From the IMG/VR virus record IMGVR_UViG_2706795618_000001, positions 1-64,000 of that record: 64,000 bases of DNA; one strand, 5' to 3'. The notes beneath the pieces are model-generated. The model made no database searches, was not told the DNA's origin, and saw only the letters and a list, made by a program, of their open reading frames with translations. Made by a program: the position numbers and the translations under genes. Of the stretch, positions 32,984 through 38,273 are shown one piece after another (position 1 is the stretch's first letter; each line of letters begins with the position of its first letter). This stretch comes from a virus (lineage: Duplodnaviria; Caudoviricetes).

Positions 32984-33045
32984 TTGCGGCCTTTTCGTCT
33001 AGTGAGCTATAACTGTCTTACCGGGGCAGGTACCAGACCAGCCCC
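32984..33045 (+). promoter_or_regulatory. Cassette promoter and leader, copy 1
   Basis: TTGCGG-N18-TATAAC with GTCTAGTGAGC; leader GGGGC-A-GGT-ACCAG-ACC-A-GCCCC. Confidence 0.8.
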
Positions 33046-33065
33046 CGAGCCCCGAGGGGGACGTT

Positions 33066-33305
33066 ATGGGTCAGACGGTCAAGATCGCCAGCCGCGCGCG
33101 TCGGCACGGTGGGGGTCGTGCCCGGATCATCGCCGCGATGCGGCACTGCCAAGATCCCCAGGTCTCCGAGGACCGGCCGGGTGTCGTGGAATTCCGCGGC
33201 CTGGACGACCACGGCAAGGGGCTGGTGATCCTGGTCCGCGACGGCGACCGTCGGCCGAACGAGCTGGTGGTGTTCCACGTCCACCCGGTCGCGTTCTACC
33301 GCTGA
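33066..33305 (+). CDS. Small RelE/BrnT-like toxin-fold protein (tentative)
   Basis: ASRARRHG, IIAAMRH, G.DDHG..L.I, VVFHVHP pattern like small actinobacterial toxin RNases. Confidence 0.45.
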   Translation: MGQTVKIASRARRHGGGRARIIAAMRHCQDPQVSEDRPGVVEFRGLDDHGKGLVILVRDGDRRPNELVVFHVHPVAFYR

Positions 33306-33317
33306 CCGGCCCAGGCC

Positions 33318-33346
33318 AACACCCCGGGGATTCCCCGGGGTGTTTT
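33318..33346 (+). terminator. Cassette 1 terminator
   Basis: AACACCCCGGGG-ATT-CCCCGGGGTGTT then TT. Confidence 0.8.
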
Positions 33347-33387
33347 GCTATCCGGCGCTGGACATTTCCACGCATTTGGCCAGCTCG

Positions 33388-33449
33388 TTGCGGGTAGGCC
33401 GTCTAGTGAGCTATAAACGAGTCACCGGGGCAGGTAGCAGACCAGCCCC
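33388..33449 (+). promoter_or_regulatory. Cassette promoter and leader, copy 2
   Basis: TTGCGG-N18-TATAAA, GTCTAGTGAGC; leader loop AGCAG. Confidence 0.8.
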
Positions 33450-33471
33450 CCGAGGGGAAGGAACCCCCACC

Positions 33472-34419
33472 ATGGCCGGAACAACCACCTACATCGCCAC
33501 CGACCCCAATGGCACCGAGCACACCCGCGCCAGCCGAACGATGGCCTACACCCACGCCCTGCTGGTCAGCGACGACGACGCCCGCACGTGGTACGCCCGC
33601 AGCTGGCACACCAGCGAGCGGACCGCCAACGACGCCCTGAGCTCCAACGGCAGCTACTCACCCAGCGGAATCCGTCGCCTGGTGGAGGTCACCGAGAAGC
33701 CCAAGGGCCGCCAGCCCAAGGCCAAGCTGACCCCGCTGTCAGCGGTGGGTTCGACGGGTGACGCGATCCTGGACGCGGCCGTCGCAGCCGCTGCCGACGA
33801 CGCCACCACCGAGGGGGAGGAGACCCCACAGCAGCGCCGCAACCGCAAGGCGCGGGAACGGCGCGCGGCCAAAAAGCAGGCCACGGGGGAGGTGGTGGCC
33901 ACGGTGACGCCGGAACCCACGGTCGAGCAGGAGGCCGAGGTCCGGGTGGTGTCATTCGCTGACGACTGGGACGCGGCCCCCGTCGGTGCCCGGCCGGTCG
34001 AGGACGACGTGCCCGCGGCCGACGACGGCCAGGAGGTGGCCGACCTGGAGAGCCAGCCCGAGGAACCGGAGGCCGACGACACCACCACGGTGGAGCCGGT
34101 AGAGGAGGGGCAGGCCGACGACACGGAGAGCCAGCCGGCCGAACCGAGCGCGTCGGAGGACGACCAGCCGGAAGTGGTGGAGGTCGAGGACCAGCCGGAA
34201 CCCGAGACGGCCGACACCGACGAGGCCATCAGCGCCGCGCTGGAGGTCACCCCCGAGCAGATCGAGGAGGCCAAGGCCCAGGTGGTCAAGGGGGAGCGGT
34301 GCCCGGGATACAAGATGGCGGTTCCCGACAACGGCAAGCGTCGCGCGGAGTGCCCGGTCTGCGGTCACAGCGTCAAGCGCTACGCCAAGTCGGGGTTGCT
34401 GGGGTCGCATCGCGCGTAG
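33472..34419 (+). CDS. Acidic low-complexity protein with C-terminal Zn-finger-like domain
   Basis: Asp/Glu-rich middle; GERCPGY...CPVCGHSVKRYAKSGLLGSHRA. Confidence 0.75.
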   Translation: MAGTTTYIATDPNGTEHTRASRTMAYTHALLVSDDDARTWYARSWHTSERTANDALSSNGSYSPSGIRRLVEVTEKPKGRQPKAKLTPLSAVGSTGDAILDAAVAAAADDATTEGEETPQQRRNRKARERRAAKKQATGEVVATVTPEPTVEQEAEVRVVSFADDWDAAPVGARPVEDDVPAADDGQEVADLESQPEEPEADDTTTVEPVEEGQADDTESQPAEPSASEDDQPEVVEVEDQPEPETADTDEAISAALEVTPEQIEEAKAQVVKGERCPGYKMAVPDNGKRRAECPVCGHSVKRYAKSGLLGSHRA

Positions 34420-34421
34420 GC

Positions 34422-34475
34422 CCGACGTAGAACGGGGCCGGTGGGGTAACGACCACCGGCCCCGTTCTACGTCGG
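34422..34475. terminator. Cassette 2 terminator (23-bp perfect stem)
   Basis: CCGACGTAGAACGGGGCCGGTGG-N8-CCACCGGCCCCGTTCTACGTCGG. Confidence 0.75.
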
Positions 34476-36202: not shown

Positions 36203-36332
36203 CCCGGGCCGTCTGCTCTGTCGTCGCGTCCGTCAATAGTGGGCATTCGACGCGCCAGGCTGTGGTTCGATTGGCCCCCAACACGGTGGGGCGCACCGCC
36301 AACACCGACAGAACGAGAGGTGCGGGTGGTTC

Positions 36333-36854
36333 GTGAAGTGTCCAGATTGCGGGTCGGCCATGACATATGGCGATGGCGACGGCGTGCACTACACCGAGGG
36401 GTACTGGTGGTGCCCGACGTGCGGCAACGAGATTCACCCCGACGACGACGGAACAGAGGAGAAGGAAGCGCGGGCGATGACGCCAGCAGAATTCCGCATT
36501 ACGCGCGACTACCTGGGCCTGCCACCCGTGTGGCTGGCCGAGCGGCTCAATGTGCGTGAGCGCACGCTGTCGCGCTGGGAGCACGGCGGTGCCCCCATCC
36601 CCCCGGGCGTGATGGAGGAGTTGGCCGCCATCGCGGAACTGACGGCGCGGCGGGTGGATTCGCTGGTCGAGGAGCTGGAGGCCGGCGGTGAGCTCGTGAC
36701 GTACCGGACGGATGAGGACTACCGGTCGTCGGGGATCGCCGACGGGCGGGTGTTCCCGGCATCGTGGCACCGCGCCATCGCGGCCCGCGTGATGGATGCG
36801 TGCCCCAACGTGGTGGTGGTGTACAGCGCCGACCAGGCGGCTGACGCCAGCTAG
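36333..36854 (+). CDS. Zn-ribbon plus XRE HTH protein
   Basis: CPDC...CPTC, then MTPAEFR..RDYLGL...LAERLNV..RTLSRWEHG. Confidence 0.8.
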   Translation: MKCPDCGSAMTYGDGDGVHYTEGYWWCPTCGNEIHPDDDGTEEKEARAMTPAEFRITRDYLGLPPVWLAERLNVRERTLSRWEHGGAPIPPGVMEELAAIAELTARRVDSLVEELEAGGELVTYRTDEDYRSSGIADGRVFPASWHRAIAARVMDACPNVVVVYSADQAADAS

Positions 36855-36870
36855 CACCACGGCGTGATGT

Positions 36871-36897
36871 CGGCCCCCACCGGTATGGTGGGGGCCG
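36871..36897 (+). terminator. Cassette 5 terminator-like hairpin
   Basis: CGGCCCCCACC-GGTAT-GGTGGGGGCCG then TT. Confidence 0.7.
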
Positions 36898-36939
36898 TTC
36901 GTCGTACTGGGAGCCTTTATCCACGTTTGGCCTGGTCAC

Positions 36940-36999
36940 TTGTGGCCGGATGTCTAGTGAGCTATAACTGACATCACCGGGCAGGTACCAGACCAGCCC
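36940..36999 (+). promoter_or_regulatory. Cassette promoter and leader, last copy
   Basis: TTGTGG-N17-TATAAC, GTCTAGTGAGC; leader GGGC-A-GGT-ACCAG-ACC-A-GCCC. Confidence 0.8.
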
Positions 37000-37022
37000 A
37001 CAACCCTGAGAGAGGGACCAGC

Positions 37023-38222
37023 ATGTCGAACACCACCCTTCCCCCCGTCCCCACCCGTACGCTGCGCGGCGCGAACATCGCCGATCTGGTCGGCCTGTTG
37101 CAGCTCCAGCACCGCCAGAAGGTGGACGTGGTGGTGCCGGTGTCCACCCTGGCCATGCGCGGTGGCCTGTTGCAGTTCCCGATGCTCGACCCCGTGGTGG
37201 ATGAGAGCGGCGTGACCGACATCGCCGGTCAGTACCGCCGCACCGACACGGTGGACCAGCAGCTGGGCCAGCTGTTCGACATCCCGGTCCGCTACGTGCG
37301 GACGTTGGCCGACAGCTACACCGAGCTGTTGGATACCAACGTCAACATGTGGGCCGAGAAGGAGGGGGAGTCCAGCAAGCCGCGCCGGGTGCTGGTGCGG
37401 ATGCTGTACGGCCAGGACGACGACCACCCCGGCACCAACGGCCTGGTCCGCGCGATCCTTTCGAGCCGGTACGGGATCCGGGACAACCTCGACACCGTGT
37501 TGTCGGTCCTCGACGGTATGCGGGAGGGCGGCCTGGGAGCCGACAACATCCGCGGGGCCGACCTGACCGACGACCGGCTGTGGTTGCGGGTCCACGCCCC
37601 AGAGCTGGCCGTCAACGCGGGCAACCTGGCCAACGGGTACCGGTCGCCGTTCACCGGTCAGGAAGCCAAGGATCTGCCGTTGGTCCACGCCGGCATCATC
37701 GTGGAGAACAGCGAGACAGGTGGCGGGGCGCTGAAGGTGACGCCCGAGCTGATCATGCAGGTGTGCATGAACGGGATGAAGATCAACACCGCCGCGATGC
37801 GCCGGGTCCACCTGGGCACGAAACTCGATGAGGGCCAGATCAAGTGGAGCACCGCGACGGTGGACGCGGCCAACGAGCTGACAAAGCAGCAGATCAAGGA
37901 CGCGGTGTCGAGCTTCATGACCAAGGAGTTCGTGGAATCGACTGTGGCCAAGCTGAACGAGGCCGCGGGGGTGGAGATTGAAGATCCCACCCAAACGGTC
38001 GAGGTGGTGGCCAAGAAGCTGAGCTACAGCGACGAGGTGGCCAAGGGCATCCTGGGCCACTTCATGGCCAGCGTGGTGCCGACCGGAGGTGGTCTGAAGT
38101 ACACGGCCGGTCACATGATGCACGCGGTGACCAGCTACTGCCAGGTGATCGAGGACGTGGACAAGGCCAACGAGGTCGGGGCCACGGGCGTGGAGGCCAT
38201 GCTGATCGCCGCGGGCCGGTAG
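37023..38222 (+). CDS. DUF932-like protein
   Basis: RAILSSRY...DN, GIIVENSETGGG, CMNG, RRVHLG. Confidence 0.6.
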   Translation: MSNTTLPPVPTRTLRGANIADLVGLLQLQHRQKVDVVVPVSTLAMRGGLLQFPMLDPVVDESGVTDIAGQYRRTDTVDQQLGQLFDIPVRYVRTLADSYTELLDTNVNMWAEKEGESSKPRRVLVRMLYGQDDDHPGTNGLVRAILSSRYGIRDNLDTVLSVLDGMREGGLGADNIRGADLTDDRLWLRVHAPELAVNAGNLANGYRSPFTGQEAKDLPLVHAGIIVENSETGGGALKVTPELIMQVCMNGMKINTAAMRRVHLGTKLDEGQIKWSTATVDAANELTKQQIKDAVSSFMTKEFVESTVAKLNEAAGVEIEDPTQTVEVVAKKLSYSDEVAKGILGHFMASVVPTGGGLKYTAGHMMHAVTSYCQVIEDVDKANEVGATGVEAMLIAAGR

Positions 38223-38238
38223 CCCCAGCGCGAAATAC

Positions 38239-38273
38239 GAAGAACCCCCGGGTGATTGACCCGGGGGTTCTTC
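38239..38273. terminator. Bidirectional terminator between cassette 6 and integrase
   Basis: GAAGAACCCCCGGGT-GATTG-ACCCGGGGGTTCTTC, 15-bp perfect stem. Confidence 0.85.

Follow-up and report, generated by a model that had tools for sequence, protein, structure and literature searches.

Introduction

Repeated motifs are known from actinobacteriophage genomes (stoperators, SAS, or start-associated sequences, and ESAS, or extended start-associated sequences), and their function is still called unclear (PMC3203893, PMC11373665, PMC12699233). ESAS and SAS have been described in Cluster K mycobacteriophages (Pope et al. 2011, PMC3203893; Adephagia, PMC11373665), and similar motifs in Microbacterium Cluster EF phages (PMC7302621). 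Adephagia has seven ESAS copies, each a 46-47-bp SigA-like promoter with an inverted repeat (PMC11373665); they precede genes 36-39, 75, 76, 91 and 92, one of these a HicA-like toxin gene, and each is then followed by a SAS at the ribosome-binding site (PMC11373665, PMC3203893). T4-like phages have the promoter-early stem-loop (PeSL) cassettes (Arbiol et al. 2010, PMC2839356; Comeau et al. 2014, PMC4122927). Here we compare with these systems an array of six gene units, each headed by a copy of a promoter-like module, in a 64-kb stretch of phage DNA (IMG/VR record IMGVR_UViG_2706795618_000001; hereafter the window), which opens a virus record 77,832 bp long.

Over all 5.6 kb the array region is 98.3% identical to Mycobacterium phage Cracklewink (genus Bippervirus); Typha, Hilltopfarm and Nadezda match it partly, at about 83%. 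Bipper and Nadezda belong to Cluster Y (PMC7194413, PMC12699233), and the source of the window is, as judged from these matches, a Cluster Y mycobacteriophage of the genus Bippervirus. Our comparison covers five genomes of two lineages, the Bipper group (this phage and Cracklewink) and the Typha group (Typha, Hilltopfarm and Nadezda). An earlier reading of the sequence alone (the original prediction) had taken the array for an integron-like store of promoter-gene-terminator cassettes. We propose instead, with a probability of about 0.7, that the six units are independent moron-like accessory units under one cluster-specific promoter and 5' untranslated region module, recombination between the copies being a side effect. 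In the literature searched on its motif strings, Cluster Y or Bipper, no description of this module was found.

Results

Six units headed by one module and closed by unrelated hairpins

The six co-oriented units occupy positions 32972-38273. The lysis genes and tRNA-Met border them on the left, and the integrase and immunity repressor genes, which point leftward, on the right. A repeat search returned a single family of six 70-nt direct repeats (at 32977, 33381, 34493, 35234, 35577 and 36932), and alignment delimited a module of ~100 nt with one copy, c1 to c6, at the 5' end of each unit. Its 5' part reads, in order, an upstream box (G/C)C(A/T)GGT, TTGCGG or TTGTGG, a 17-18 nt spacer and a TAnnnN hexamer; its 3' part reads 6-8 variable nt, an invariant GGGCAGG...CCAGCCC, a C-run/G-run region with GAGG or GGAG, and ATG. 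The module is a real feature and not a chance pattern. Five of the six copies have the 15-mer GTCTAGTGAGCTATA unchanged, and at up to three mismatches this word has six matches in the window against 0.14 expected from shuffles (the sixth match is a palindrome at 32338 and not copy c5), while the leader word GGGCAGG-N4-AG-N-CCAGCCC is present in all six copies (seven matches against 0.14 expected). Copy c5 keeps the leader despite a degenerate spacer.

All six hairpins named at the 3' ends fold as long G+C-rich stems directly 3' of stop codons, with free energies of -24.8 to -55.4 kcal/mol, z-scores of -2.1 to -7.8 and short or imperfect U-tracts. They do not form one sequence family, as they are not among the direct repeats and differ in sequence. 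A terminator-like hairpin also lies 5' of every module copy except c1, which follows the tRNA. The original prediction thus holds for the anatomy of the array: six units share a promoter-like repeat and a leader, the -35 to -10 spacing read from the sequence is 17 or 18 nt, and each unit consists of a promoter-like module, one or more open reading frames (ORFs) and a strongly folding GC-rich, terminator-like hairpin.

The module recurs in two genomic zones and is conserved across lineages

Searches with a covariance model of the module (R1) gave 10 matches in this genome, 10 in Cracklewink, 14 in Typha, 15 in Hilltopfarm and 13 in Nadezda. Four of the copies in this genome lie outside the window, in the right arm (66872, 68356, 70870, which is partial, and 71322 of the genome; GTCTAGTGAGCTATA is also found at 66897, 68381 and 71347), and the module is hence genome-wide and the array not a bounded store. 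In every genome the matches are confined to two zones, the gap between lysis and integrase genes and the last ~12 kb of the right arm, with zero R1 matches in the long, tightly packed early/replication operon between them, and every copy is co-oriented and in register with the next ATG.

Among the collections searched, the module is found only in Cluster Y. It was not found in the other phages of a 50,697-record collection. A scan of viral contigs for GTCTAGTGAGCTATA gave several matches in Typha alone and single matches in unrelated contigs, and eleven single-match contigs checked with R1 yielded nothing significant; the hairpin word, scanned against genome contigs, was uninformative, the single matches in unrelated bacteria being due to chance. 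Phage contigs encoding homologues (55-66% identity) of g6, the protein of the sixth unit, are without the module, and at one such locus, L156, a check for repeats turned up no comparable system.

Between the Bipper group and the Typha group the flanking genes have diverged to 66-83% identity, yet both groups have the same invariant positions in the module. Mean pairwise identity of the copies is 0.68 within a genome versus 0.67 between genomes, copies that are positional orthologues (0.63-0.78) are no closer than non-orthologues, and a test for concerted evolution across lineages gave no signal. Invariant positions amid diverged flanks, with no homogenisation, argue that the module is kept by selection on its function and not by recent spread or duplication.

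A putative sigma-A-type promoter with a palindrome over the -10

With TTGCGG as -35 and TAnnnN as -10, the 5' part of the module is probably a sigma-A-type promoter; the early expression proposed in the original prediction is a possibility. In the Typha group one copy is promoter-only (Typha L015:10468), and there the ATG of a 61-aa ORF lies 6 nt after the -10. This ORF groups with a 118-aa protein encoded by the phage of the window, whose C-terminus matches phrog_6718, and by this grouping it belongs to a real protein family. The promoter-only copy has the geometry of a mycobacterial leaderless transcript, which supports the -10 assignment and a transcription start probably ~7 nt downstream; the start so placed in full copies would fall 3-4 nt 5' of the leader stem-loop.

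Spacer and -10 together carry a 6-4-6 palindrome, GT(C/A)TAG-N4-CTA(T/G)A(C), whose outer hexamers are kept while the central N4 varies (TGAG, TTTG, AGAG, TGCC, TGGA); several copies are perfect palindromes. Because the left half GT(C/A)TAG is kept in the spacer, where it has no known role in RNA polymerase recognition, we read it as the site of a dimeric DNA-binding protein, and the palindrome as a putative operator at which a dimeric regulator encoded by the phage would bind. This regulator is probably not the immunity repressor, as the rep-cro intergenic region has repeats of the CGCGAAA type and no GTCTAG palindrome. A perfect palindrome lies over the -10 of a small helix-turn-helix (HTH) gene just upstream of the array (gp39; Table 1), and this gene is a candidate for the regulator.

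The box just 5' of the -35 (window 32977-36938) repeats the hairpin-arm word of the leader, GCAGGT or GCTGGT. It could be a third protein half-site or a piece of an extended -35.

The leader stem-loop: transcribed RNA element or DNA site

RNAalifold predicted for the leader a stem GGGC-A-GGT/ACC-A-GCCC with a loop of 4-5 nt (commonly RNNRG), in which 99.6% of stem cells pair over 37 distinct copies. Double compensatory changes occur at two pairs, the closing T-A becoming C-G in five distinct rows and a G-C becoming A-T in one; the hairpin of c5 carries the T-A to C-G change, and in one Typha copy the internal A.A mismatch has become a C-G pair. A second mini-hairpin, CCC-loop-GGG, includes part of the Shine-Dalgarno sequence, and the same two-hairpin fold is predicted in most copies. 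Other copies consist of the hairpin and Shine-Dalgarno sequence without the promoter, and these sit between cistrons, directly after stop codons. The pairing, the variable loop and the intercistronic copies lead us to favour a transcribed RNA element. A 5'-terminal stem-loop is an mRNA stabiliser in Escherichia coli, and the one described here may likewise set mRNA stability, or it may bind a regulator.

The same symmetry could instead mark a DNA site, GGGC(A/T)GGT-N4/5-ACC(A/T)GCCC at about +5 to +25, where a dimeric repressor would block initiation or elongation as at a stoperator, with the upstream box as third half-site. This reading gains from that box, which repeats the arm word in both its A and T forms, from compensatory changes that keep the palindrome symmetric with no G-U intermediates seen, and from precedents in the Cluster A stoperators and in the DNA-site reading of the ESAS inverted repeats (PMC3203893). 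We nevertheless find it doubtful: half-sites spaced by either 4 or 5 nt would be poorly tolerated by a rigid dimer, the element is always oriented with the mRNA and lies at a constant distance from the Shine-Dalgarno sequence, copies reduced to the hairpin directly follow stop codons between cistrons, and the asymmetric A.A position is conserved. A more elaborate scheme, which we consider rather improbable, would combine several of these elements. In it the stem-loop would be the RNA operator of a phage RNA-binding regulator, or an RNase or stability determinant, adding to the DNA operator in a two-layer control of 10-15 dispersed units, and the modules would act as PeSL-like portable homology exchanging cassettes between the left-arm and right-arm zones.

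Recombination at the copies, with gene order preserved

In Hilltopfarm, gp43, gp44 and gp45 each have a module, and gp44 is absent from this phage. The flank upstream of c3 is closer to that of the Hilltopfarm copy at gp44 (P-gp44, 61/99 identical positions) than to that at gp45 (P-gp45, 26/89), as is the 5' half of c3 itself (38/41 versus 33/41), whereas its 3' half is closer to P-gp45 (41/52 versus 35/51 for P-gp44) and the coding sequence that follows to the gp45 side (66/80 versus 30/92 for the gp44 side). Copy c3 is, on this comparison, a chimera, as expected for an exchange between two direct copies. Across the array region 1.7% of positions differ from Cracklewink. In Cracklewink both copies read TGACGT at the discriminator, where c1 here reads TGTCTT and c4 GGTCTT; that the identical substitutions (T to A, T to G) stand at matching positions in copies separated by 2.2 kb indicates gene conversion, c4 being changed at one further base. 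The promoter half of a Nadezda module differs from that of Typha and Hilltopfarm between otherwise conserved flanks and leader, and a whole module lies between gp44 and gp45 in Hilltopfarm and not in Typha or Nadezda. Altogether, the view of the repeats as recombination substrates stands.

Cassette content also varies as had been foreseen, the gp44, gp49 and g5a/g5b units being variably present among the Cluster Y genomes, so that relatives do not all have the same content and order, although content and order are identical in Cracklewink. Shuffling, on the other hand, finds no support, since shared genes follow one order in all five genomes apart from the inversion, in the Typha group, of the toxin unit with its promoter. 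Several indels do not use the repeats, namely the loss of the P-gp49 unit, a deletion in Nadezda and a deletion in Hilltopfarm. This last (Hilltopfarm L016:8178-8300 compared with Typha L015:7170-7600) removed a 78-aa gene and its terminator and fused the module to the next gene; its ends are short ACC-rich microhomologies within the first codons of two neighbouring genes, and an exchange at the hairpin as the source of this right-arm difference was accordingly rejected. In Typha, an annotated mycobacteriophage mobile element (MPME) is found between the gp49 terminator and the gp51 module (L002:7198-7569); it is not in Hilltopfarm.

These data bear on a reading of the units as PeSL-type mobile cassettes, in which the repeats would be selected mainly as portable homology and the units excised, perhaps as mini-circles, lost, gained and moved. 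The chimeric c3 with the gene between two Hilltopfarm repeats absent here, the parallel double substitutions in c1 and c4, the Nadezda promoter half, the whole repeat peculiar to Hilltopfarm and the inverted toxin unit all fit it, as do Typha-group paralogues of g4, which occur in left arm and right arm and head modules in both zones, and the precedent in T4-like phages (PMC2839356, PMC4122927). The constant order of shared genes, the identity of content and order with Cracklewink and the three indels that bypass the repeats speak against it; moreover, the conserved positions (operator, -10, stem) look regulatory and are kept without homogenisation, and, in contrast to the composite PeSL motif, the terminator hairpins show no conservation. 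We regard it as an unlikely primary account of the array.

A true integron-like platform, with a site-specific recombinase capturing and excising cassettes at the repeats, is highly improbable. The likeness is superficial and consists in small, mostly unrelated genes arrayed next to the gene of a tyrosine recombinase. The integrase scores 48.3 bits against TIGR02249 (cut-off 265) and its best matches are generic Xer-type recombinases, and its gene adjoins that of the immunity repressor as in other Cluster Y genomes. Integron cassettes are promoterless, with a 3' attC family and one common Pc promoter, whereas each unit here has its own promoter-like module at the 5' end and no attC-like 3' element; the module also occurs 30 kb away in the right arm, and the junctions look like homologous exchanges. 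None of the integron features tested, IntI, attI, attC and Pc included, was found, and the integron-like store of the original prediction has to be given up. Equally improbable is a small mobile element (of miniature inverted-repeat transposable element or MPME type) inserted by chance upstream of genes, for although mycobacteriophages carry MPME, one of them in the same region of Typha, all copies are co-oriented and in register with the next ATG, have -35/-10 and Shine-Dalgarno sequences at functional spacing, show no terminal inverted repeats or target duplications in the copy alignments (no dedicated search was run), and have promoter and leader halves that occur separately.

Cargo genes

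The cargo (Table 1) had been described as mostly unrelated small genes: toxin-like, two Zn-finger proteins, an acidic protein, an XRE protein and a DUF932 protein. A toxin-like g1 finds support in PHROG 36779 and the annotation of relatives; the protein is without a Pfam match, and no antitoxin ORF adjoins its gene, the sole ORF between its module and terminator. The unit is inverted in Typha, Hilltopfarm and Nadezda, where it diverges from the next module. The two supposed Zn-finger proteins, g2 and g3, are not unrelated, as they have a common 44-aa Cys-rich C-terminus with 64% identity. Relative to Cracklewink, g4 has a 12-bp in-frame indel at 35484; allelic replacement in this gene was considered and rejected, the cluster of differences being mainly that one indel.

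Unit 5 (35667-36854) contains three ORFs and not one, two small ORFs being followed by a 130-nt gap and then g5c. The HTH of the supposed XRE protein is borne out, and g5c has in addition a Zn-ribbon and a likeness to MqsA antitoxins (TIGR03830, E=1.3e-7, under the cut-off; a weak match to Aca2). The unit could be a toxin-antitoxin-like module or an anti-defence-plus-regulator module. The assignment of g6 to DUF932 is less secure: it has no Pfam match even at E<=1, and the presence of PF06067 on 12-16% of the members of neighbouring clusters in a protein atlas is a lead only, so that g6 is possibly a distant DUF932 relative. PADLOC gave nothing meaningful on the cargo, and NCBIfam nothing for most cargo proteins. 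RecE/RecT-like genes, invoked in the original prediction, are annotated in Cracklewink; Pfam RecT was not detected in this genome.

Table 1. Coordinates of the module copies, cargo genes, hairpins and bordering features in the window.
Feature	Position	Strand	Remarks
Perfect palindrome GTCTAG-AGAG-CTAGAC	32338-32353	.	over TAGACT -10 of HTH gene 32362-32613
Small HTH gene (gp39)	32362-32613		phrog_686 HTH
tRNA-Met	32891-32965	+	left edge of array
Module copy c1	32972-33071	+	-35 TTGCGG 32984-32989; 97.1 bits
c1 sub-parts	palindrome/-10 32997-33013; leader hairpin 33024-33044; ATG 33066	+	
g1, 79 aa	33066-33305	+	BrnT-like/toxin-like; PHROG 36779 'toxin' E=1.7e-5; Cracklewink annotation
Hairpin T1	33318-33344	+	-32.2 kcal/mol, z -3.5; then UUUUG
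Module copy c2	33376-33477	+	91.7 bits
g2, 315 aa	33472-34419	+	very acidic (64 D/E); Cys-rich C-terminal motif
Hairpin T2	34422-34475	+	23-bp stem, -55.4 kcal/mol, z -7.8
Module copy c3	34488-34590	+	chimera; halves resemble two different Hilltopfarm copies
g3, 168 aa	34583-35089	+	DUF7457 N-terminus (Pfam PF24256 E=5e-29), Cys-rich C-terminus
Hairpin T3	35099-35122	+	z -2.1
Module copy c4	35229-35326	+	discriminator changed together with c1 relative to Cracklewink
g4, 71 aa	35321-35536	+	acidic (15 D/E, 2 K/R)
Hairpin T4	35550-35579	+	z -4.2; abuts -35 of c5
Module copy c5	35572-35672	+	degenerate; spacer palindrome lost, -10 TACGGT; 76.5 bits
g5a, 90 aa	35667-35939	+	without family match; not in Typha group
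g5b, 88 aa	35936-36202	+	without family match; not in Typha group
g5c, 173 aa	36333-36854	+	Zn-ribbon and XRE-type HTH, MqsA-antitoxin-like; Pfam HTH_31; phrog_664
Hairpin T5	36871-36897	+	z -3.5
Module copy c6	36927-37028	+	88.7 bits
g6, 399 aa	37023-38222	+	phrog_1362 E=3e-119
Hairpin T6	38239-38273	.	z -5.9; between convergent g6 and integrase genes
Phage tyrosine integrase	38347-39591	-	not an integron integrase; right edge of array

Surroundings of the array

A 44-bp stretch of Cluster F-type phages (Che9d, Yoshi, ThetaBob, Demsculpinboyz and RitSun), unannotated there, matches the 3' part of tRNA-Met (32919-32962) at 97.7% identity and may be their host-tRNA-derived attP core. The immunity repressor ORF (39576-39965) and the beginning of the integrase ORF, both on the - strand, have 16 nt in common. 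Bipper's integration module has been compared with that of BPs (PMC7194413), and by analogy integration-dependent immunity is possible in this phage. Immunity to the Cluster Y phage Nadezda, a cross-cluster effect, has been reported for a lysogen of Yasnaya_Polyana (Cluster K4; PMC12699233). In the structural-gene region, imperfect tandem and direct repeats of 30-80 nt (GGCCGACxxGGGC-type) at 26280-26633 are probably a segment of a repetitive Gly/Asp-rich tail or fibre protein. In the Rfam search only the tRNA exceeded the gathering threshold.

Discussion

In the proposed scheme of moron-like units under one module, each unit would be headed by a module copy and closed by its own non-homologous, intrinsic-terminator-like hairpin. 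A regulator binding at the palindrome over the -10 would exert transcriptional control, and the stem-loop near the mRNA 5' end would act through stability or through a bound regulator, so that the module would bring about ten dispersed units under one common transcriptional and post-transcriptional control. The ~100-bp copies would at the same time be substrates for homologous recombination or gene conversion, by which cassettes may be added, removed or re-promoted.

Several points weigh against this scheme. In most copies the -10 ends in a base other than the usual T, and a simple sigma-70 scan of the region was negative, since its rules admit neither TTGCGG nor a -10 lacking the final T. At the promoter of the HTH gene, the palindrome is kept in the Typha group as its right half alone, which weakens gp39 as an autoregulated regulator. 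Folding z-scores of the leader are modest (mostly -0.3 to -2.7), so that the case for the hairpin rests on conservation, and since the compensatory changes also keep a DNA palindrome, covariation cannot separate an RNA stem from a DNA operator. The comparison, finally, rests on just two lineages and five genomes.

The Cluster Y module offers a clean, separable version of such motifs, with natural variants that are promoter-only, hairpin-only, have lost the operator or have a compensated stem, and these make motif function testable with reporters in Mycobacterium smegmatis. One chimeric copy and one gene-conversion event are sequence-level evidence that shared regulatory modules drive the gain and loss of accessory genes of temperate mycobacteriophages, paralleling PeSL, and the clean recombinant junctions make the role of the motifs in mosaicism testable. 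The module also marks accessory units as candidates for lysogeny, defence or toxin functions, and it could serve as a portable expression signal for mycobacterial genetics.

By analogy, the module closely resembles systems already known in other phages, with ESAS/SAS and PeSL the closest. For ESAS/SAS the comparison of architecture took in upstream regions of Adephagia genes. Like ESAS/SAS, it is an intergenic motif present roughly seven or more times per genome in one orientation, combines SigA-like -35/-10 hexamers 17-18 bp apart with an inverted repeat, is preceded by terminator hairpins and followed by a conserved ribosome-binding region and ATG, is confined to the lysis-integrase gap and the right end, and heads unrelated small genes including a toxin gene; in both, the proposed regulator is probably some protein other than the immunity repressor. 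The module is not homologous in sequence to ESAS, as R1 gave no match at E<=1 on Adephagia 20-59.6 kb. The 13-bp SAS GGGATAGGAGCCC (<=2 mismatches) was not found 3-9 bp before start codons, its one match in 77.8 kb being on the reverse strand away from gene starts, against three for a control pattern. In Cluster K, moreover, the promoter is flanked by inverted repeats of 15-17 bp and RNA pairing was not supported in the authors' analysis, whereas here the 6-4-6 palindrome overlaps the -10 and a separate downstream stem-loop has compensatory changes; the polarity of the ribosome-binding motif is also opposite (CCC...GGG here, GGG...CCC in SAS).

With PeSL cassettes the array has in common small repeated sigma-70-like promoter and stem-loop motifs that flank non-essential ORFans in hyperplastic regions, and recombination between copies leading to insertions, deletions and replacements between close relatives. 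Changes with end-points in the repeats were found here (c3, c1/c4 and the promoter-half swap), with other indels elsewhere. The PeSL stem-loop, however, is a terminator and composite with the promoter, whereas here the terminators all differ and the conserved stem-loop is in the leader, and this is a temperate siphovirus with an unrelated host and sequence. Morons, which Juhala et al. and Hendrix et al. are said to have described in lambdoid phages in 2000, are similarly autonomous promoter-gene-terminator accessory units between core modules of a temperate phage, and this anatomy, together with variable presence among relatives (the gp44, gp49 and g5a/g5b units), is what the sequence of the array suggests. 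Classical morons each have an unrelated promoter, whereas here one conserved promoter-leader heads all the units.

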